This document shows positions 3,785 through 48,147 of a DNA stretch of 64,000 bases, piece after piece (the first letter of the stretch is position 1; the number at the start of each line of letters is the position of its first letter). Position numbers and translations under genes: made by a program. The notes under the pieces were generated by a model, which worked only from the letters and a program-made list of their open reading frames with translations, was not told the origin of the DNA and ran no database searches. The stretch is from Escherichia phage N4: the sequence record NC_008720.1. One strand, written 5' to 3'.

Positions 3785-4843
3785 ATGGCTAGTATTGATT
3801 CTATTGCCGTATGTAATCCACGGCAGGTACGTAAATTTGTTGAACACTGTATCCGTTCAGGATTGGTTCCATTTATCACTTCATCCCCTGGCATGGGTAA
3901 ATCTGCAATTGTTCATCAGATTGCAGAAGACTTTGGCCTGAAACTGATTGACCATCGTCTGTCTACTTCAGCACCAGAAGACCTGTCAGGTCTGCCTCGT
4001 TTTAAAGAGAATGGCCGTGCTGAATTTGCCCCATTTGATGAGCTATTCCCACTGGAAGGGGATGCTGTACCTGAAGGGTTTAATGGCTGGCTTCTCTTTC
4101 TCGATGAGTTTAACTCTGCTCGTAAAGAGATTCAGGCTGCTGCTTATAAACTGGTACTCGACCGCATGACTGGTCAAAAAAAACTGCATCCTTATGTAGC
4201 TATCATATGTGCTGGTAACAAAGCAACTGACCGTGCCATTACTAACAACCTGTCTACAGCTATGCAATCACGTCTTATTCATCTGGAAATGGAGACTGAT
4301 TTTGATGTCTTCATGGAAGATGTAGCGATTCCTAACAAATGGGATGAACGTGTAATTGCATTCCTGAATGCTAACCCAAATAAACTGAATGATTTTGAAC
4401 CAGACCATCAAGAGAAGACTTTTTGTTGTTCTCGTACATGGGAGTTCGTTAACAAGATTGTTTCCATTCTCCCGCCAGGACCAATTGATAGTGAAATGAC
4501 TCTGCTGTTAGCAGGCACTATCACTTCTGGTGTAGCAACATCATTCGTTCAGTTTACTCAGGTCTATAGCAACATGGTGTCTTTGAATGAGATTTTAGAT
4601 AATCCTAAGAAAGCTCGTATGCCTGAAGACAATAACCTGTTGTGGGCTGTAGTCACTTCACTAATTAACAATACTGACGAAGATAATCATTCGAAAATCT
4701 TTGATTATGTTGAACGTATGCCATTTACGTTCAAGGTTTTGTACTACCGTTCCGTAGGTAGTCTGGTTCCAGCTTTGGTTAAATTACCGAACTGGCGTGT
4801 TGCTGCAATCACATTATCTAAATACGTTCATGGTTCCAATTAA
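3785..4843 (+). CDS. AAA+ ATPase, MoxR-like
   Basis: Walker A SSPGMGKS (nt 3887-3904), Walker B LLFLDEFN, SD GGAGAG; paired with the downstream vWA protein as in MoxR-VWA systems. Confidence 0.75.
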   Translation: MASIDSIAVCNPRQVRKFVEHCIRSGLVPFITSSPGMGKSAIVHQIAEDFGLKLIDHRLSTSAPEDLSGLPRFKENGRAEFAPFDELFPLEGDAVPEGFNGWLLFLDEFNSARKEIQAAAYKLVLDRMTGQKKLHPYVAIICAGNKATDRAITNNLSTAMQSRLIHLEMETDFDVFMEDVAIPNKWDERVIAFLNANPNKLNDFEPDHQEKTFCCSRTWEFVNKIVSILPPGPIDSEMTLLLAGTITSGVATSFVQFTQVYSNMVSLNEILDNPKKARMPEDNNLLWAVVTSLINNTDEDNHSKIFDYVERMPFTFKVLYYRSVGSLVPALVKLPNWRVAAITLSKYVHGSN

Positions 4844-6153: not shown

Positions 6154-6159
6154 GGTTTT

Positions 6160-27478: not shown

Positions 27479-27850
27479 ATGAACCGTATTACTGAAGAAC
27501 ATATTGATAGCATCATTGAAGGTGTTTACTACTTCAATATGGCTAAAGCTGTAGAGAATGAAGCAGTTCTGATTCCTGAAGACCATTTAAAAGCATTAAG
27601 TACAACTACTGTTTGTGCACTGGTTCTTTCTAATGGATTCACTATTACTGGTAAATCTGCCTGTGTTGACCCTAACACCTTCAATGAGGAGTTAGGTAAG
27701 AAATATGCTTACGAACAGGCCGTTGATAAAGTATGGGAATTGGAAGGCTATCTGCTTAAGCAAAACCTGCATGAGAAAACTCAGAGCCAGGAAATGCTAA
27801 AAGGGTTCCTGCAAGATGACAACTGTGAAGGTGGGGGCTGTAAAATCTAA
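27479..27850 (+). CDS. Hypothetical protein (123 aa)
   Basis: SD AAGGAA 6 nt before ATG 27479; conserved-looking core ...TVCALVLSNGFTITGKSACVDPNTFNEELGKKYAYEQAVDKVWELEGY...; stop overlaps the next start (TAATG). Confidence 0.5.
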   Translation: MNRITEEHIDSIIEGVYYFNMAKAVENEAVLIPEDHLKALSTTTVCALVLSNGFTITGKSACVDPNTFNEELGKKYAYEQAVDKVWELEGYLLKQNLHEKTQSQEMLKGFLQDDNCEGGGCKI

Positions 27851-28332
27851 TGGAAATTAAAGTTCACTTTACTAATTACATCGGAACCAAATGTGTAAAT
27901 GGTTTCCCGATGAACAAAGCTGACTACTGCAAACTTCGTGGTTGGGATGTACCTGCTAATGAAGACCCGTTAGAAGAGGGTTACTTAGTAGAGTATCCCG
28001 ATTCTAAACCTAACCATGAACAATTCCGTGGCTACATTAGCTGGTCACCTAAAGCTGCATTTGAAGAAGCATACTGTGATGTAGACAAAGGCTGCACGTT
28101 TGGTCACGCAGTAGAGCTTATGAAATCAGGTTTTAGAATGTCCCGTAAAGGCTGGAATGGGAAAGGAATGTATATCACATTAGTATCCGGTGAAAACTGG
28201 GCTATGGATAAACATGAAAATACCGTATGCATGAAACAGGATTGGCTGGGTATTAAAACCGCTGACAATGAATTTATGCCCTGGGTTCCATCTCAATCAG
28301 ATGTATTAGCAGAAGATTGGGTATTAGCTTAG
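27850..28332 (+). CDS. DUF2829-like (Thoeris anti-defence Tad2-like) domain protein with about 80-aa N-terminal extension
   Basis: Residues 84-109 (nt 28099-28176) TFGHAVELMKSGFRMSRKGWNGKGMYI and C-terminal ...WVPSQSDVLAEDWVLA match my recollection of the DUF2829 signature. Not verified by any search. Confidence 0.45.
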   Translation: MEIKVHFTNYIGTKCVNGFPMNKADYCKLRGWDVPANEDPLEEGYLVEYPDSKPNHEQFRGYISWSPKAAFEEAYCDVDKGCTFGHAVELMKSGFRMSRKGWNGKGMYITLVSGENWAMDKHENTVCMKQDWLGIKTADNEFMPWVPSQSDVLAEDWVLA

Positions 28333-28343
28333 TAGAAATTAAA

Positions 28344-28361
28344 GCCCCTCATTAGAGGGGC
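28344..28361. terminator. Bidirectional terminator hairpin between convergent genes
   Basis: GCCCCTC-atta-GAGGGGC; ATTTTTTAT follows on the plus strand and a T/A-rich tract follows on the minus strand. Sits between the plus-strand stop (28332) and the vRNAP stop (28370-28372). Confidence 0.55.
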
Positions 28362-28369
28362 ATTTTTTA

Positions 28370-31300
28370 TTAGTGAGTAAGGTTGAACCAAGGATTGAGG
28401 GTAGGTGCTCTTAATCCTTGTCCGAAGCCTAATGAGTAATCCAGTCTTCCTTCAGCCAGCATGGTTAGCATGTTGTCCTGAATTGGTAGACCTACGTTAC
28501 CAAACATGGTAGGAGCAGGTACTACTGTAGCAATCAGAGAATGTACTGGGTTGTTTCTAATCATGCTCATAGCAACTTTAATGGAACGAATTTTAAAGTT
28601 GTAGAACCACATCAGACCCATACTTTCCATATAGCCACGGAAACGACCAGGCAATCTGTCATAGTTAATAAACTCTTCAGTTACCTGACCTAATGCTTCA
28701 GAAGAAGATTTTTTCTTACGTTTCACTAAATCATCATAGATGATGGCTTTAGCAATAAAGTCTGAATACTCTACTGTTTTCTGGATACCCTGGAACAGAG
28801 CAGTGTCCTTAGCAATAAGAGCGTAACGGCCAGCATTACGTACTTTTTCTGGAAGTTTATTAGCAAGTTTTTCCATGTACTCATGAATCTTACCTTCAGC
28901 TACTAACAGGTCATCACGACTAATACCAGCATCAGCAATAGAAGAGAACTCACCTGCTTCAATCAAAGGCCAGATACTCATACGACGATGACTATCAGTA
29001 ATAGATTGAATCTCAGTTTTAAGTTTACGAACCAGATTAGGGTTACCTTCAGCAGCACGTAGCTCTGCTTCCGCATCAATCTGACGTAAACGAGATTTAA
29101 TATACTGATTAATCTCTGACGTCTTACGAGGAATGTTCACAGCAATATCTTTAACAGGAACACCACGTCCAATCATCTGGTAGATGTTAGCAAGGAAGTT
29201 AACTGCCGGTACTACAACAGATTTAACAACAATTACTGTCTTAGCGTCCTTCACTAAGTTCTGAATGGTATTTTCAGCATTCATTACTACATGATATGCC
29301 TTATTACCGAATGCACCGAGGAACATCTTCTTAACAGTATCAAGGGTGCTAGGTGACCAACGAGAGTTACCGGTCCACACATCACCAATAGATGCAGCAC
29401 GATAGCCAAGTGCATCATTCAGCATATCCCTACGAACCCATAACTCATCTTTACCGAAGAGTTCTTCGGCCTTATGACGAGTCTCAATGTTCATCAGGTT
29501 AATCGCATCAGCCAGTACTGGGTCATCAATTTTACCTAACAGGTTTACATATTGAGATTTATTAGCACTGGAGTCTTTAATGTCTTTCTCATACATAGCA
29601 TGTAATTGCTCAATGAGAATGTCATTAAAACGTTGTGCTTTAGCCTCTTCCACCTGACGACCACGCCATACACCAACCATCTTAGCAAAGTGATTGTCTT
29701 GGTTTAGGTGCTTCAACATATTAGGGTCAACGGATTGTTCATAAGCAACTACCTGACCTTTGCTGTTATAAATTGGCATCAGTGGTTCACGCCCACGCTC
29801 ACCTTTAGCCAGAGCTTTGGTAATACGCTCTACGGTTGGTTTGTCAGTAATACGCCCAGCAACCATAGTGCCTAACGTAAAGCCAGTACCAATATCCACA
29901 CCACCAGCAGTATTACGAACGTTCTGAAGAATACCCTGAGAGTAAGGGGCACGGGCAGCTACTGGGCTGAAGTAATAACCTTTAGAACCAGTACGGAAAC
30001 CAGTGCTCCCCTGATAAGTACCAATACGAGTAAAGGATTGGCTATTTAACTTAGCAAACTCTTTATCGTCAGCAATAATCAAATTCACACCTTGCTGGTT
30101 CTCTACAGGGATATAGCCTTTAAAGTGATTCAGCAGAGTACGGTTATCACCTTTAGCTTTACGCATCTCTTCAGTACGTTGACCAACCATATAAGCAATG
30201 GAGAACTCCATACCTTCCACTTCTGATTGAGCCAATTCTGACAAAAGGTCACGGTCAGACTTATTCATCAATTCCAGAGAGTACAAAGTAATGAGCTTAT
30301 CAATAGCAGCTACATCTGCCACAGGACCATTAGTAATACGTTCACCTAACAAACGACTAATAGCATGGGCATTACGAAGGAGGTTATTACCTACTTCCCC
30401 CATAATCATGTATTGAGCCAGTTGCTTAGATTTCTTCTGAACCAGATTCCAGTTTCTACCTGCTTGGTTCTGAATCTCTTTTTCCAGAGTAGAGATTTCA
30501 TCTTTCACTTTCTTGGATGAAGAGAGTAAATCTCTAATTTCAGCCATGCTCATAGTTTCACGTAGAACAGCTAAATCTGTTTTACCTAAACCAGTATGCA
30601 TTGCAGACCATTCGGTATCAGTCAATTTACGAGAGAACTTACCAGCAATGACTGTAGGTAAATGCTCACGGAATTGCTGACGGTCTTGAGAAATCTGGCT
30701 CTTAACCAATTTGATTAAGTCATAGACATTGGCATTAGTCTTAGTACGGCCAACAATGTCATTAACTAAGTCATGGAAAGGTTGCCATACTTTACCCTGG
30801 TTCATAGCAGTCATAACACCCTGAGCCACTATTTCACCCTGTTTTTCAGATGCAATAGCAGCAGTCAGTTTAGCCAGATGAGCAACACCTTTAGCAGCTA
30901 TATTAGAAGGGTTAGCAATTACCTTATCTGCCTTCTCAATAACAGTTTCAGATAACCGTTCAATGCTATCCGTTACGTACTGATTAGCACGGTCAATGAA
31001 GTTACCGGTAGGGGTTGCTACAGCATCATAGAAGGACTCTCGTTTCAAAGCAGCAGCCATGATTGTTTCTGACAAAGCATCAATACTGTCCTGAACATTA
31101 GTAGCTTTCTGGTCACCAGCCATACGACGGTTCAGAGATTCCATTACCTGAGTACCTGCATTGGTAAGCAGAGTATCTATATCATTCCCTAATTTCTTAT
31201 CTGCTTTAGGTACAGGCATTTCTTTAATGATTGAACGTAGTTCTTCATTAACCATAGCCAGACCCAGGAATGTAGGTAACAGACTGGTTCTACCTTTGGC

Positions 31301-34300
31301 ATCTACTTCAACCAGATTAGCACCAGAGATGGTGTCATATTTCTGTTGAGCATAGTAACGGTCAGCAGGGTTAGTACTATCAGGGTCAGCCATGAAATGC
31401 TCTACCGTAAGGTGTTTCATTACATGGGTATAAAGTTCCTGAGCACGAGCCATAGCATGTGGGTCAATCGCAGCTTCAGTTGCTAATGCAGCAGTAACCA
31501 TCTGGAATACAGACTGTTCCTGAGCAGTCATATTGAAGCCATGAGACTGAACATCACGAACCAGTCGAGTAGCACTCATTAATGCATTAGCCACATTGCC
31601 ACGACGTTCTACTTCTGTAACTGGGTCAGTACGAAGGTAATCAGTTACCAGTTTATCGAAAGTCTGGTTCAACTGAGACAGACGTTCATTATTACCATAT
31701 GCTTTGCTATGGAACAGTGTGCCATCTTTAGCTACTGCCTGAGTTGTAGGTTGGCTACGCATCAGAATTGCAGAGTTAAACAGCAGATTGGAGAACATAT
31801 CTTCTCCCAATGCAGGAGCTTGTTTACGTCCCCAAATCAATTTCTTAATAGCCTGATAAACATCTTTCACCATTTGAACCAGTGAAGATGTTCTCTTCTG
31901 TTTAGCAGCAAGAGCACGGTTAGCTAACCCCCAAGCCATAAACTCATTAAGAGCAGCAGCTTTAGAGATAGCTGGGTCAACAAATCCATTACTCAAATGA
32001 CCTTCGATAGTTGCAATAGCATCAGCATATGCTTCTCTCATTTCTGGAGAATCTTTGGAAATATCCAGAGAACGGAACTGTTCCATCAGACCTTCAAGGT
32101 TCTCAATAGCCTGCTTAGAAGTAGGGCTTACTTCATTACCCTGATAGAAGGAATAAACTTCCTCGAAGGTAGAGGCATGAACCAGTTCATGAATGAGGGT
32201 TTCCATAGATGGGCTAACCAGATAAATGGTCTTATCATCGAAGTTAGTCCAGCCATAAATATTACCTGCCTGAGCTTCTTCCATTTCCTGAGAAGTCAAT
32301 TCAGTAACATTCTTCTGACGAGCATACTCTGCAACCTGAGTAGGTGTACCGTAGATAATCTTATAGTCTTTAGCTGCCAGTGATTTCTGAATCTCCGCAA
32401 GAGTAGCTGCCTGAGTAGATGGCAGATTACTAATCTTAGCCAGATTACGAATAGCAGTAGCAGACAGGATACGAACACCAGATGCCTTATGCTCACGGCC
32501 TACCATACCAAAGTCTGGATTCACTGGTTCTTTTTCAGAAACAGTTTCTTCTTTGACTTCAGCCCTAGCCTTAGCGACTTTTTGTTTACGGGCTTCTAAC
32601 TCTTCACGGAAAAGTTTATTCAGTTCATCAGCCTGTTGTTCAGGGGTCATATTGCTGAGGTCAATCTTACCGTTGTTCTGATAAGGAGCACCTACAGCAG
32701 CCATCTGGTCAATGGACAGATTTACCTTATCCAGCACCTTATGACGAATATCTACACCCAGTGCAATATTACGTAAGTTACGTTCAATCAGAGATGCAGC
32801 GTTAGCAATATCATCTACAGTAGCATTCTCACGTTGGTCATATTCCAGAGCAGATTTACCAATTGCTTCCAATGCTTCAGGGGACAGCTTGCTGAAATCT
32901 ACATTCTTCATGAACTTAGCATATGATTCATAAACATTCTTAATAGGGTTACCCTGCCAAGAAGTGTAAACAGCTTCATTAGCTTTACGACTGGCATCAG
33001 TGATGTCATTCAAACCAATGTTCATACCATCAAAGATTTTGAGGGTATTCTTTGGTGCACCTTTCATAGTGGAAAGAGTTTGCATCATCATGCCATCACC
33101 AGTACCAATAGTCATAAATGGAATACCTGCTACACCGGCCTGTGCTGGAGCATAGATACTCATTGGTACACGCATACGGTCATCAAGGTTAGTAGCTAAT
33201 ACCTGATTTGCTACTTCTGCATTTTCTGAACCAGCAATGTAGAAAGTCTGAGAACCAGTCTCAATCATAGGGGCTAAGTTATTCAGAGAAGCCTGAATAT
33301 CATTCAGTTCTTTCTGAGTAAGGAAATCACCTTTCTTCCATGTTGGGTCTTTAGCCTTCTCTGCCAGCTTCTCTTGTACTCGCTGTTTGAACATATCTTC
33401 CAGCACTACAGATTGAATCTGAGTAGCTTTCTGTAATTGTTCAGTAGAGTACACCAGACTTTCACCTACAGTCTGAGTAATACCATTACGTAGTGGTTCT
33501 ACAAAGAAGTGCAGCATATTTTCCTGAAGTGCCTTCAGTTGCTCGCCCTTAATGGTATAGGTCTTAGGATTGATTTTTCCTTTGGCTCCTGTACCTGTGG
33601 ATTGTAGTTCCAGTACACCTTTACGTTTAACAGGAACAGTAGAAGTCAGTGTTTCCATATCTTTCAGGAAACGGGCAAGAAGTTCTTCAGCATGTGCTTC
33701 TGAAGCAGCTTGCTTACCAAACATTGCCATAGCAGCAGAGATATTTGGGTCTTTAGCACGAGCTTTCAGTACATCAGACATACGCTCATAGATGGCATCA
33801 GTAACAGAACTAACCAGCTTACCTGCAATACCACGAGCACCAGAACCATAGATGGTAATAGTCAGTGGGTTCTTAGCAATACCACGTTTAAGTTCTAAAG
33901 CACCATTCTCACCAAGATTAATATCCGGTAAAAACAAATCCATCAGAGAAAGAAGACTGTCTATCTGAGACTGAATAGGCATATTAGAGGCATAGTTACT
34001 ACGTAACTTACCCAACGATTCCATCAAAGCATTAGTGGATGCTTGATATAAATCATTATTGTCAGCAGTAGAGCGATGCTCATTCATGGTCTTATTTGGA
34101 GAACCAATGAACAAGCCCCCTTTGGCAATATTACGAATCCAGTCAGGAGTAAACAGACCGCCTGTCATTAGCATCATGGCATTGATTGGACCATTAGTAA
34201 CACCATCTGCTTCTACATACAGTGGAGTTACAAATGCAGATTTATCCTCTGCTACTAAGTAACGGGAATACTCCATAAGAGCCATCAATGCTACGAATGA

Positions 34301-37300
34301 CTTCCTATCTCCTAATGCTGTATTCAGAACATCAACTGCGTTTTCTGGTAAGGAACCAGTGGTATTAAACTCAACCATCATATCAATGGCTGGTTTCAGA
34401 TTACCTTCCAGTAATTTAGTCAACTCGTCAGACATAACCTCACGAGTCATAGTATGGACTTTAATGTCCAATGCCTGAGCCAGACCTAACTGGAATGCAG
34501 AGAAGTCTTCATTGTTCTGGTTCGATAAATCCAAAGTAGCTTTAGTAGGTAAGATGGCCTCACGAACCAGTTTGGCTGATTGAGGATTGTATTTACCTAA
34601 CATCTGCATACGACCAACACGGGTCATATTGTATGCATAGTGAATAGGTACAGTAGAGATGTCTTCGCTCTGTGCTCTTACCTGCTCAATGACGGAGAAC
34701 AGTTGGTTGTAAGAGTCCTCTACTGAACGGTTCTTACCTTCCAGAGATTTAGCATGGTTATCATTAAGTAACTCTTTATTCAGAGTACCAGCACCCATCA
34801 GTTCGAGAATACGGTCTTTACCTAACGTCTCATAGAATTGAACCATTGGGGTGTGTACATAGAACTCTGTAGCCTGCTCTGCTTTCAATGCAGCCTTCTG
34901 TTCTGGAGTATTACGAACAGCAGGGTTACGAAGCTGAGTATTAGCTACAGGAGGAATGTCATCACCAAAGAACATCTTCTCTGTAGGATTCACTAAAACA
35001 GCTTCTTCAATAGCAGTAGGGAAGCTATTAATTGGGTCGAAGGAATCCAGTTCAGTAATGGTGTACAGACCAATAGTCTTCTTGTTATCTGGGTCAATTT
35101 CTGACATATCCACGATGTTCTCTACAACATCAGTAGACTCTACAAATGCAGCCAGAATTTCAGCAGCCATTGCTGTAGGGATGCCTTTGGTATAGCCCAA
35201 TGGAGCATTTGGATTACGAGATAATCCCCAGTAAGACTCAATTTTCTGAGCCAGGGAACTAACTGCTTCAGTGAGTGTCATACCAGTATCAAATTGCTCT
35301 ACTAAACCTTCTGGCAGCAGAGCTTGGTCAATACCAGTAATAGCAGCAACATCTTTTGCATCTTTGATAGCAGTATTGCTGGTAGCAGTAAGTCTCCATT
35401 GAAGACCTGCTAATACAGCAGTCTGTAGCAATTGTTCGTTGTACTTAAAGGTATCCCCATCCTGCTCAACAATGTTAAGTAACTTACCACCTACCCAACG
35501 GTTGGCTTCTGTACCTTGAGCAAAACGTTTACCAACATCCTTAGTGTTAAGGAACTTAGCCAGACGGGAGCGAAGAATATCAGCAATACCTTCCCCATGT
35601 TCCATGAGTTCTTTGTATCGCTTAATAACTTCCCCATTAAAAGCAGGGTTAGCAGTTTCTTTCTCAGTAAAGAGTTCATAACGAGCACGAGAAGACAGAG
35701 CTTGGGCTACATCTTTTAGAGGTGCTTCTGAACCAACAGTACGGGATTTCTGTTCTTCTGGTAAGGTAAAGGACAATTTGAAATAGTTCTTAATACCCTC
35801 TGCTTTAGAATCAGCAGTACCTACCAATGAAGGGTAAACAGCATCAATACCTTCTTTTAATTCTTCTGTAACTGTACTTTCTTTTGTAGAAGTTTCAGTT
35901 TCTTTAACAGATTCAGTAGGTTGCTTGATGTTGTCCTCATTAGTAAGGTTAACATCCTGTTTTTCAGACTGGTTCACAGGTTCTTTTATAGCCTGTGGGC
36001 TAGACTCTTTAGTAGTAGGTTCTGTTTTAACAGATTCACTAACAGGAGTCTTAGTCTGTACAGTAGATGTAACTGGTTCCTGTTTTGTAACAGGAGTTTC
36101 TTTAACCTGATTCACGGAGTCAGCTTTCGGTTGAGAAGAAGCAACGTCTCGATTGCCTTGACGGAATGCCTTGACCACCTCAGCAGCAGGAGCGTTAAGA
36201 CGTGAATCCAATGGAGTAACTTTTATATGACTGACCTTCAGTTCCGGGTAAGCCGAAGCGAGGGCATTAGCAATATCCGCTACCGTTTTCGCTTCAAGAG
36301 CAACTTGCTGGGCAAATTTAACCGACTTAGTGTCATAGGGATTGACCCCCAATCCGGTACGGCTACGAACCCATTCTCTGTCAGCAGTAAGAGCTTGGTA
36401 GTGGACAGACTTATTCTTATCCGCATTCCCCGTAACAAGATGCTCATTCAACGCTCCAACCTTATTCTGCATGTGCTGGGCGAACTGCATAAAGTCGTTC
36501 AGGTAAGCGGAGGCCAACTCGAAATTACCAGAGTTATACGCAGACCGAATCCTATTCGCATGTTGCAACGCAGAGTATTGTCCTTCCTGAGTTCTGCTCT
36601 CATCCGTTTTAATCTGTTTACTCACAATGTCTTGAGGACGTAATCCAAGACGGGCAGCTTCTGCATCATATTCCCGTGCCCCCTTCAGGATTGCAGCAGC
36701 ATTCTGGAGGGCAGCAATCTGGCGATTATTCAGTTTAATACGACCATCAGCAGCATGTTTAAGAACAACATTTACAGACTCTGGATTGAGCTTTTCAGGG
36801 GCTACTTCAGCAGCTAATGCTACGTTCTGCATTTCCTGTGGACTGGATTCTTCAGTCACATTCAAAGAACCATTCTGAGCAGATTCATTAATCATTCGAT
36901 TAATAACATTCAGTGCACCAATTACTTTTGGTGTGTTCTGAATATTAGCTGTCAGATTCGTATAACGGTTGAGTAACTCAATAGCCGGAGAATCTTTAGG
37001 AATGCTATCCAGTGCAGCAGGGTCACGGTTAATGAACTGCTCAAACTCTGAAACAGCATCATACATATAAGATGCAGCTTCCATCAGTGCTTGAGGATTA
37101 GATTCATCTAATGTGTTAACTAAGTCTGCTAACTTCTGAATAACCTGTACTTGGTCAGTAGAACCAGCTACAGCATTACGAATATGCTCTGGTGCTTCCT
37201 GATAATTTTCAGGATTAAAACGAGTAGCATTCATTAAGTCAGAAACATACTGGTGTGCTGCAACTTTCTGTTCTGGAGTAGCATCAGTTGCTTCAACAGC

Positions 37301-45712: not shown

Positions 45713-46918
45713 TTACAGCGGAGCTACAGTTTTAATAAGAGCCAGACGTTCTGGGCGTTTAACCAGAATACCGTAGTACCATTTGATGCTGGAGAAGCCA
45801 GTTTCACCATATGGGTCATTACGGTCAGCAGTTTCTTTACCAGGCATCTTAGTCATAACGGTAAATTTAAGTGATTTACCATCAGTCTGGAAGCCAATGG
45901 AGGTAAAGGAATCATCACCTACTACCAGCATTGGGTAAACGTCATAGTGCTCTTGGCCAGATACCATAGAGGTACGGTAACCAGGGTTAGCTCCAGTAGC
46001 CTGTGCACCAGCACCTGCCCAGTGCAGCATCTCTGGAACCTGAATGATACGGAACTTATCAATAGAACCGACTTCACCATTCATGATAGTACCTGCATCA
46101 GCATAGTGCTGAGTTTCGATAAAGGCTTTATTACCGAACAGGTCTTTCATTGCTTTCAGTTCTGGAACCAGTTCAGAACCTACATACATAACACGAGTAG
46201 CACCGATGACTTTAGTATCAATCATACGGGAACCAGTGATGATGGTAGTCTGAGTAGGAGTACGGTTCTCCGTCAGAATCTGGTCAAGACGCATCAGGTT
46301 CTTATAAGAAACAACAGACGGGGTAGAACCTTCACCAGTGATGGTGGCATCAGAAGTAGCAGCACCAGCATACAGAACAGTACCGGCAGCAGCCAGCAGG
46401 TCTTTTTGCAGTACAGCTTCAGTAATCTGAGTAGCACCATTCATCAGTTCACGGGACAGATGTTCCATCAGGCCATCATCAGAATCGAAGTCAATTGATT
46501 CCTGAGTGAACTCATAGAAGAAGCCAAACTTGTGAATAGAACCTTCACGAGCAATACGAGTAAAACCAACACGGTTAACTCGACCACCGTTTTCAGTCAG
46601 TAGAGGCAGTTTGGAAGTAATGTTACCGATGTCTTTGCTGGAACCATACAGGTTACCGTTAACGATGGTAGCACCACTTGCATCAATACCCTGGTCATTG
46701 ATGTTACGGTCATCCAGCAGAGGAACATATTCATACACCTTGATGGTCTTACCGTAATGCTTCGGCATGTTAGTTACAGAGGCCAGTGGCATGAAGTACT
46801 GCTCTTTACGGGCAGTGATGATTGCTTTCTTCAGCCAGAAGAAGGTTTGCATCTGGTCAGAGTTAGCACCATCAATACTAGATTTCTGACCGTCAGTAGG
46901 AGCGTTATAGTTCAACAT
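45713..46918 (-). CDS. Major capsid protein (N4 gp56-like)
   Basis: 401 aa; ATG 46918 with SD AAGGAA. Assigned by size, strong RBS and position downstream of a scaffold-like gene and portal; HK97 fold not verifiable by eye. Confidence 0.7.
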
Positions 46919-46929
46919 GTCTCAATTCC

Positions 46930-48147
46930 TTATAGGCCGTTCAGCCGAGGTAGTTTCATAAAGTCCTCGTCACTCATTGCAAGAGGATTAACAAGGACTT
47001 CTGTCTTACGCGGTGTAACCCGTGATGGGGATGCCGCTGCTGCCTGTTGAGTATTAGTGATTTCAGACTTAGGCGTTGCAACACGAGTTGCTACTGGCTG
47101 AACCACTGGCTTAGGTTGTTCAACAGGTTTCTGCTTAATCAAATCGTTAAAACCACCATTAGCAGCAAGGTAGTTACCGACTTGATTATAAGCATCCAGG
47201 AATGCTGTACCGATTGGGATTTGGCCTAAGATTTTGAGTCGTTCAATTTCAGAAACAATACGGTCGTAAATACCGTTAGCTTTCTGTTCAACGATGGTAT
47301 TAACCAGACCACGGTTTTCCAGCAATGCCTGTTTGCTGTGGTCATCCCACGTAGTCGAAATTAACTGAAGAGTAGCTTGTCCTTCTGGAGTGGATTTAGC
47401 ATCTTCCAGTTCGGTTGCAAATGCTGCTTCAGCATCTGACACACGGTGATTACCAGCTTGGTATTTAACTTCCTCTTCTGGATTAATATCCAGAACATCA
47501 ATACCAGATTCTTTAATCAACTTCTTAATAGCATCAGGATTCCCTTTAACTAAGTCGATAGCATAAGAGAGTTGCCCTTCATCTAATAATCCGTTGTTTT
47601 CTAACATCAGGAGATACTTACGATACGGCTGAATCTCCTGCATTTTACGGGTATAGTTAGCTCCCATTTGCATCAAGCTAATGACCTCTTCAGGACTCTG
47701 AGGAGTAATCATTTTGCCGTTAGCTTTAAACGGAGCCATTATCCGTTCATAACCAGCCTTATAGTCGAAGTCAGTTTTCTGGTCTGATACCTGCTTGTCT
47801 TCTTCTACTTTTGCTTGGCCTTGCTCAGTAGTAGAAGATGCATTATCAGTAGCAGGCTTACTGTTGCTGTCAACCTTATTTGGGTCAACTGTAGCACTAT
47901 CATTACCAGTTGTGAATGCATCTGAATTGCTTTCTGATTCAGAAGTATTTTCTACTTCAGTTGGTTCAGTAGTTACTTCTGTTTCATCAGTTTGTTCAAC
48001 TTCAACAATTGGGTCTGGTTGTGCAGGAGTATTATTTTCTACCGGTTCCGGGTTGTTCTGAATGCTTGTTGGACCAGGCATGTTCAGAATCTCTTCATCC
48101 GACATTTTAAAAATGTCGGAAGCTGTTTTTGCAGCTTCCGTAGTCAT
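46930..48147 (-). CDS. Putative scaffolding protein (N4 gp57 position), 405 aa
   Basis: ATG 48147 with SD GGAG; highly acidic low-complexity N-terminal third (Glu/Thr/Ser/Asp-rich); immediately upstream of the capsid gene. Confidence 0.4.
   Translation of the reverse strand: MTTEAAKTASDIFKMSDEEILNMPGPTSIQNNPEPVENNTPAQPDPIVEVEQTDETEVTTEPTEVENTSESESNSDAFTTGNDSATVDPNKVDSNSKPATDNASSTTEQGQAKVEEDKQVSDQKTDFDYKAGYERIMAPFKANGKMITPQSPEEVISLMQMGANYTRKMQEIQPYRKYLLMLENNGLLDEGQLSYAIDLVKGNPDAIKKLIKESGIDVLDINPEEEVKYQAGNHRVSDAEAAFATELEDAKSTPEGQATLQLISTTWDDHSKQALLENRGLVNTIVEQKANGIYDRIVSEIERLKILGQIPIGTAFLDAYNQVGNYLAANGGFNDLIKQKPVEQPKPVVQPVATRVATPKSEITNTQQAAAASPSRVTPRKTEVLVNPLAMSDEDFMKLPRLNGL

Follow-up and report, generated by a model that had tools for sequence, protein, structure and literature searches.

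What is the protein encoded by the single 10.5-kb gene on the minus strand of the 64,000-nucleotide stretch of DNA analyzed here (the window), and from which phage does the window come? An initial annotation had described the product as a giant virion RNA polymerase of 3,500 amino acids with T7-like catalytic motifs, and had placed the window in coliphage N4 or a very close relative. We put the probability that the gene is gp50 of coliphage N4, or of a strain with an identical protein, and that it therefore encodes the virion-encapsidated RNA polymerase (vRNAP), at about 0.97 on the basis of sequence comparison. The gene and its translation start lie at these positions of the window:

28370..38872, minus strand: gp50, virion RNA polymerase (vRNAP), 3,500 codons followed by a TAA stop at 28370-28372
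38880..38884, minus strand: Shine-Dalgarno sequence AGGAA, 7 nt before the ATG at 38872, read from the sequence

The coordinates and length first given for this gene proved exact when its open reading frame (ORF) was translated: the frame is unbroken over 10,503 nt, TAA included, and its product has 3,500 residues and a mass of 382.5 kDa. Because the probability of an open frame of 3,500 codons is (61/64)^3500, or approximately e^-168, the ORF is not a chance product. Comparison with phage vB_EcoP_3HA13 (3HA13), an isolate of the species Enquatrovirus N4, revealed 198 synonymous and 33 nonsynonymous codon differences in gp50, indicating that the gene is under clear purifying selection. Two ORFs antisense to gp50, at 31997-32383 and 36227-36643 on the plus strand, were set aside, as they are unannotated in relatives and lie opposite a gene that is clearly under such selection.

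To place the protein, we searched it against the Protein Data Bank (PDB) with phmmer, which amounts to a comparison with N4 gp50 and with the structures of its polymerase fragment (mini-vRNAP). The match was full: the search returned seven distinct chains, every one of them named virion (DNA-directed) RNA polymerase, and the score of the window protein against chain 11gp_A (7708.6 bits) was equal to its score against itself (7708.6 bits). Since five single random substitutions, introduced as a control, each cost 2.2 to 3.7 bits, the equality of the two scores means that the window protein is indistinguishable from N4 gp50 over all 3,500 residues. The full-length N4 chains matched were 11GP, 9PNQ, and 9PNV, with 9PNR, 9PNT, and 9PNW as further full-length chains; the N4 vRNAP is represented in the PDB by the full-length entries 9PNQ/9PNR/9PNT/9PNV/9PNW and 11GP/11GO/11FW and by the mini-vRNAP entries 2PO4, 3C2P, and 3Q0A, of which 9PNQ and the other 9PN entries hold the coordinates from a 2025 cryo-electron microscopy (cryo-EM) study of N4 vRNAP. 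Profile searches gave the same answer, with PHROG 2206 ("virion RNA polymerase") matching residues 25-3499 at an E value of 0 and the N4/vRNAP-specific Pfam families PF21894, PF21769, PF21867, and PF21624 scoring 326, 195, 186, and 77.5 bits, respectively, against a cutoff of 27. The products of the neighboring genes gp51 (over residues 1-359), gp52 (150 amino acids), and gp53 (885 amino acids) also scored as highly against N4 chains 11mn_A, 9yf4_OA, and 9yft_FA as against themselves. N4 gp50 and the window protein thus have the same sequence, the same neighbors (gp51 to gp53), the same domain limits, and the same catalytic residues, with no difference detectable at the protein level.

The same deposited chains bear on where translation begins. 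The mechanical ORF call extends to 28370..38890 and opens at a TTG codon, and a start there would yield a protein of 3,506 amino acids with every residue number shifted by 6. We rejected this start, which we regard as highly improbable. Being the first codon of the mechanical call is what speaks for TTG 38890, but it lacks a preceding Shine-Dalgarno sequence, whereas ATG 38872 has AGGAA 7 nt before it; the deposited N4 vRNAP chains are 3,500 residues long and begin MSVFDRL; and relatives of N4 annotate an identical 10,503-nt coding sequence. ATG 38872 is therefore preferred, and all residue numbers below are counted from it.

At the nucleotide level the agreement with sequenced isolates is high, and the collinearity of the late module reported earlier extends from one end of the window to the other. 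The entire window aligns with 3HA13 in a single block of 64,010 columns at 98.15% identity, covering bases 6155-70142 (the right end) of that genome, so collinearity between the two is complete. The best DNA matches to the gp50 gene in the phage collection, which does not include the N4 reference record (EF056009/NC_008720), were 14 Enquatrovirus isolates at 97.7 to 98.0%. These values, which stop at about 98%, are what would be expected if the window came from a close Enquatrovirus relative whose gene is a gp50 orthologue with the same function. We consider such an origin improbable, as the products of gp50, gp51 (over residues 1-359), gp52, and gp53 all reach their self-scores against N4 chains, and the window protein is 33 and 34 residues away from the gp50 proteins of its nearest sequenced relatives, 3HA13 and AL25, respectively. 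The span of the window also fits an N4 genome of 70,153 bp, of which the window would represent bases 6154-70153. N4 itself is thus favored over a close relative, and the window is almost certainly its right-hand 64 kb, judging from the sequence.

The next question is whether the features expected of this polymerase are found at the expected positions. The polymerase domain and its motifs are located as follows; "mini" denotes mini-vRNAP numbering:

32564..35881, minus strand: RNA polymerase domain (mini-vRNAP, residues 998-2103), T7-like single-subunit type, from PDB alignments and Pfam PF21867, PF21624, PF21894, and PF21769
34610..34624, minus strand: TxxGR motif, T1417-R-V-G-R1421 (R1421 is mini R424); R1421 is invariant in 12 vRNAPs and aligns with T7 R425
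34172..34213, minus strand: motif A, EADGVTNGPINAMM, residues 1554-1567 (E1554 is mini E557; D1556 is mini D559, a catalytic Asp)
33848..33874, minus strand: motif B core, KNPLTITIY (K1667 is mini K670; Y1675 is mini Y678)
33014..33037, minus strand: motif C, IFDGMNIG, residues 1946-1953 (D1948 is mini D951, a catalytic Asp)

Chain 2po4_A aligns over its residues 1-1104 to gp50 residues 998-2101, and 2po4_A, 3c2p_A, and 3q0a_A together cover residues 997/998 to 2101/2103, in keeping with the published mini-vRNAP limits of 998-2103 (PMC4496689). Residue 1 of 2po4_A falls at gp50 residue 998, so mini numbering equals full-length numbering minus 997. The motif A and motif C-like strings singled out in the initial annotation were found exactly, EADGVTNGPINAMM from residue 1554 and IFDGMNIG from residue 1946, and its placement of the two aspartates at residues 1556 and 1948, with the mini domain beginning at 998, was borne out by the 2po4_A alignment and the literature. 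The codons are GAT in both cases, at 34205-34207 for D1556 and 33029-33031 for D1948. The catalytic residues of N4 mini-vRNAP are named as R424, K670, Y678, D559, and D951 in PMC2784036, which cites Kazmierczak et al. 2002, and E557 (gp50 E1554) is described beside the catalytic aspartates (PMC4496689). All five residues were found in gp50 in their expected contexts, as R1421, D1556, K1667, Y1675, and D1948. Given that the 2PO4 chain aligns to gp50 998-2101, D1556 and D1948 are, by sequence, mini-vRNAP D559 and D951, the aspartates already reported to be catalytic.

Could these two segments nevertheless be chance look-alikes of polymerase motifs, with the catalytic residues elsewhere? Mini-vRNAP has been called a "highly-diverged member" of the T7-like single-subunit RNA polymerases (PMC4496689), and the similarity of gp50 to T7 RNA polymerase is indeed very weak. 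Together with the 98% ceiling of the DNA matches, the following points weigh against our reading of the gene and its motifs: Pfam gave no match of gp50 to PF00940 (T7-type RNA_pol) at an E value of 0.01 or less; motif C was not aligned with that of T7 RNA polymerase by hhalign, being misplaced in the global alignment (T7 D812 falls about 20 residues from D951, at low confidence) and absent from the local one, also when the region was restricted; and the catalytic assignment of D559 and D951 rests on a secondary citation, that of Kazmierczak 2002 in PMC2784036. Against a chance resemblance stand several results. With a profile of the polymerase domain, local hhalign matched mini residues 410-624 to T7 residues 411-583 (E = 0.0024), pairing R424 with T7 R425 and D559 with T7 D537, and a second local match just past motif C (mini 969-1001 to T7 833-866; E = 0.0046) sets D951 within 3 residues of T7 D812. 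In the global alignment K670 is matched with T7 K631 as well, and Y678 with T7 Y639; the local match at motif B is weak (E = 0.47). Both aspartates are invariant across 12 vRNAPs whose identity to N4 in the polymerase domain drops to about 17%, and they belong to just 29 invariant positions out of 1,095 there; in the literature precisely D559 and D951 are named as catalytic, with E557 next to them in motif A. A chance resemblance, already contradicted by published mutagenesis and crystal structures, is therefore hardly credible. The equivalence of D951 with T7 D812 rests on that mutagenesis, on those crystal structures, and on invariance throughout the family rather than on the alignment made here.

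The likeness to the T7 RNA polymerase/single-subunit family (phage, mitochondrial, and plastid enzymes) lies in the TxxGR/DxxGR motif and motifs A, B, and C, which they have in common with N4 vRNAP, and in a T7-like right-hand fold, which was reported from vRNAP crystal structures (PMC4496689, PMC12633501). N4 vRNAP differs from T7 RNA polymerase in that its polymerase sits inside a protein four times larger and has an N4-specific plug and motif-B loop, in that it reads a DNA hairpin on a single-stranded template and requires gyrase and EcoSSB (the protein of Escherichia coli that binds single-stranded DNA), and in that it is not made after infection but comes packaged in the virion and is injected.

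The 12 vRNAPs referred to above comprise the window protein, that of 3HA13, and 10 further Schitoviridae proteins encoded by full-length genes: those of G7C, Achromobacter phage Axy04, Pseudomonas phages Zuri and CMS1, Erwinia phage Rexella, Rhizobium phage RHph_X3_15, roseophage EE36phi1, Salmonella phage TR2, Vibrio phage phi 1, and Pseudoalteromonas phage pYD6-A. Residues R1421, K1434, R1437, E1554, D1556, K1667, and D1948 are invariant in all of them, as are the motif A columns E1554, D1556, G1557, T1559, and G1561; K1434 and R1437 correspond to mini K437 and R440, which contact the initiating nucleotide. At Y1675 a Tyr is present in 11 of the 12 and a Phe in CMS1, the other four of the five catalytic residues being invariant. 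The equivalent of Tyr678 (window 33848-33850) is likewise Phe, within KKPLTAxMFGSN, in Litunavirus (CMS1, YH30) and Shizishanvirus (phCDa); T7 Y639 governs the discrimination between ribo- and deoxyribonucleoside triphosphates. Motif C reads FDG in the N4-like members and [IV]HDA in the Pseudomonas, Vibrio, and Pseudoalteromonas members, which is close to the IHDS of T7.

Like N4 gp50, the other Schitoviridae vRNAPs, CMS1/DEV-like Litunavirus among them, are giant single ORFs (3,240 to 3,785 amino acids) that are cysteine-free or almost so; their domains follow the N4 order of N-terminal domain (NTD), RNA polymerase, C1 (HExxH), and C2, and gp51/gp52-like genes adjoin them. They differ from N4 in domain identity (down to about 17%), in the motif C variants, in the Tyr678-to-Phe exchange of Litunavirus and Shizishanvirus, and in the linker, which is not conserved. 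The window protein agrees with the vRNAP family in size, profile match, catalytic residues, promoter contacts, gene position, and absence of cysteine. Some orthologues are recorded under misleading names: vB_EcoM_PD205 has "DNA polymerase," ECBP1 has "gram positive anchor domain protein," PMBT57 has "hypothetical protein," and pSb-1 (KF620435) has three split hypothetical proteins.

What do the parts of gp50 outside the polymerase domain contribute? The domain limits were taken from the cryo-EM paper (PMC12633501), and the remaining regions, including the two subdomains of the C-terminal domain (CTD), are these:

36155..38872, minus strand: NTD, residues 1-906, Ala/Gly-rich, limits from PMC12633501
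35855..36154, minus strand: low-complexity linker, residues 907-1006, rich in Thr, Ser, Glu, Lys, and Pro, from the sequence
31748..32503, minus strand: CTD subdomain C1, residues 2124-2375, predicted to be zincin-like (anthrax-lethal-factor-like), with HELVH at residues 2228-2232 (window 32177-32191)
28373..31747, minus strand: CTD subdomain C2, residues 2376-3500, limits from PMC12633501

Putative membrane-spanning helices have been placed at NTD residues 224-278 (PMC12633501), and stretches of moderate hydrophobicity lie near residues 115-140, 225-255, and 346-366. The region of residues 907-1006 has been described as a flexible linker (PMC12633501); 8 to 11% of its positions are substituted relative to the 98% identical relatives, a share that does not exceed 1.1% in the folded domains, and it contributes no invariant column across the vRNAP family. 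C2, described as mostly helical, with a new fold, and as an allosteric inhibitor of its own polymerase (PMC12633501), ranks as the most conserved part of gp50 in nine of the 10 pairwise comparisons and exceeds the polymerase domain in conservation in every one of them; it also holds 31 of the 70 family-invariant gp50 positions. A permissive Pfam search of the NTD, C1, and C2 found no family above the cutoff, and subthreshold matches there (FSH1, DUF6377, MnmE_helical, and others) were judged to be noise.

In C1, the residues H2228, E2229, and H2232 of the HExxH motif and the downstream E2310 do not vary among the 10 diverse homologues compared, and D2012 and R2279, which form the reported salt bridge between the polymerase and C1, are both present. 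The known systems to which C1 probably comes closest are the zincin-like metallopeptidase domains of polyvalent proteins, the anthrax lethal factor-like (ATLF) fold, and Pro-Pro endopeptidases. A zincin-like domain was predicted in phage and plasmid "polyvalent proteins" by Iyer et al. in 2017 (PMC5512222), and the fold of C1 is already published as a prediction; its activity and a link to autoinhibition are unpublished, and we found no experimental report of zinc binding or peptidase activity of C1 in the literature examined. We offer as a tentative and rather unlikely proposal, derived from residue conservation, that C1 might be an active metallopeptidase which, after ejection, would cleave gp50 at its flexible linkers, or else a host or ejectosome protein, and that C2, whose conservation at least equals that of the polymerase domain, might have a further essential function beyond encapsidation. 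If this were so, self-cleavage of gp50 would release the polymerase domain from the autoinhibitory CTD.

Because the protein is identical to N4 gp50, the literature on the function of the latter applies to it. About four copies of gp50 are present per capsid, and they are the last to be ejected, behind gp51 (outer-membrane complex/pore) and gp52 (periplasmic tunnel), probably in a partly unfolded state, as beads-on-a-string subdomains able to pass the approximately 35-Å tail channel; the NTD binds membranes (PMC12633501). The virion-packaged enzyme is delivered into the host, where early transcription is resistant to rifampicin (PMC12633501, PMC4496689). Supercoiling of the entering left genome end by host gyrase makes the early promoters P1 to P3 extrude as short hairpins, of which EcoSSB melts that on the nontemplate strand and retains that on the template strand; the hairpin is then recognized via W129, K267/K268, K849/K850, and D901/R904 in mini numbering (PMC4496689). 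All of these residues are present in gp50 at an offset of +997. Transcription of the early genes by vRNAP also helps to draw the DNA in (PMC4496689, PMC12633501). The CTD docks on the rear of the polymerase and, acting allosterically, drives the motif-B loop into the active site, which is why full-length vRNAP is less active than the isolated polymerase domain (PMC12633501). Encapsidation has been assigned to the CTD and genome injection to the NTD on unpublished data (PMC4496689).

Are the promoters that this enzyme reads also in the window? In 3HA13, three vRNAP promoter hairpins (stem-TYC-stem followed by TTWTGG) lie in the left 4.6 kb, at 91-103, 558-574, and 4547-4563. The window begins at the equivalent of 3HA13 base 6155, inside the gene for the large subunit of RNAPII, and all three hairpins are therefore to its left. 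We scanned the window with two promoter patterns, GAAGCGNAGCTTC and GCTYCGCNNNTTWTGG, the second of which was derived from P1 to P3 of 3HA13. The former gave six inexact matches where 2.7 were expected, which we did not take as promoters, and the latter gave two where 2.4 were expected. As no vRNAP promoter was found above chance in the window, the targets of the enzyme itself lie outside it.

The composition of gp50 is unusual in one respect: none of its 3,500 residues is a cysteine, compared with 0.95% in the other proteins of the window (P of about 3e-15 if residues are independent), and 11 of the 12 vRNAP homologues likewise have none. The absence of cysteine presumably helps gp50 to cross the oxidizing periplasm. 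Taken together, the 4,294 residues of gp50, gp51, and gp52 (28370-41370, minus strand) include no cysteine. Also without cysteine are the major capsid protein (45713-46918), its neighbor (46930-48147), and a 290-residue product encoded at 573-1445.

The surroundings of gp50 include these features:

41384-44041, minus strand: gp53, upstream neighbor, N4 PDB match
40918-41370, minus strand: gp52, ejection protein, N4 PDB match
38973-40907, minus strand: gp51, ejection protein, N4 PDB match over residues 1-359, stop at 38973-38975
38936..38957, minus strand: hairpin and T-run, AAAAGCCC-TTCG-GGGCTTTTTT, read from the sequence, within the 97 nt that separate the gp51 stop from the gp50 ATG
28344..28361, both strands: bidirectional intrinsic terminator GCCCCTC-ATTA-GAGGGGC with T-runs on both strands, from scan matches on both strands

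Genes gp53, gp52, and gp51 lie directly upstream of gp50 on the late (leftward) strand, in the same order as in AL25, 3HA13, G7C, and CMS1. The bidirectional terminator separates gp50 from the convergent gp49 (27850-28332, plus strand), and AL25 and G7C annotate terminators there. The hairpin at 38936-38957, which the consensus scan overlooked, carries a terminator annotation in AL25; it may attenuate read-through into gp50, and no clear sigma-70 promoter follows it. We infer that late expression of gp50, from the leftward late strand, is driven by host sigma-70 RNA polymerase activated by N4SSB. Sites resembling sigma-70 promoters are strongly depleted in 27300-41000, where 10 were counted, while shuffles that preserve dinucleotides gave 29.2 ± 4.8. 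On the plus strand at 26298-26977, between the replication module and gp48/gp49, are genes for four tRNAs (Asn-GTT, Ser-TGA, Thr-TGT, and Pro-TGG); AL25 annotates a fifth tRNA, of undetermined type, between those for Thr and Pro, where ARAGORN calls none in the window.

N4 vRNAP has been studied since the 1970s, and its structures were solved from 2008 to 2025. The remark in the initial annotation that this is known biology is apt: gp50 is long characterized and very well studied. The observation is confirmed, its interpretation is supported, and neither the gene nor its identity is new. Infection begins with the passage of a 383-kDa polymerase through a 35-Å tail, which is remarkable biology, yet this is a textbook protein. 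Its value here is as an anchor: it identifies the window as N4's right-hand 64 kb, from about base 6154 to the end, and sets the strand and the numbering of the late module, so that other findings in the window can be read against a well-annotated model phage.

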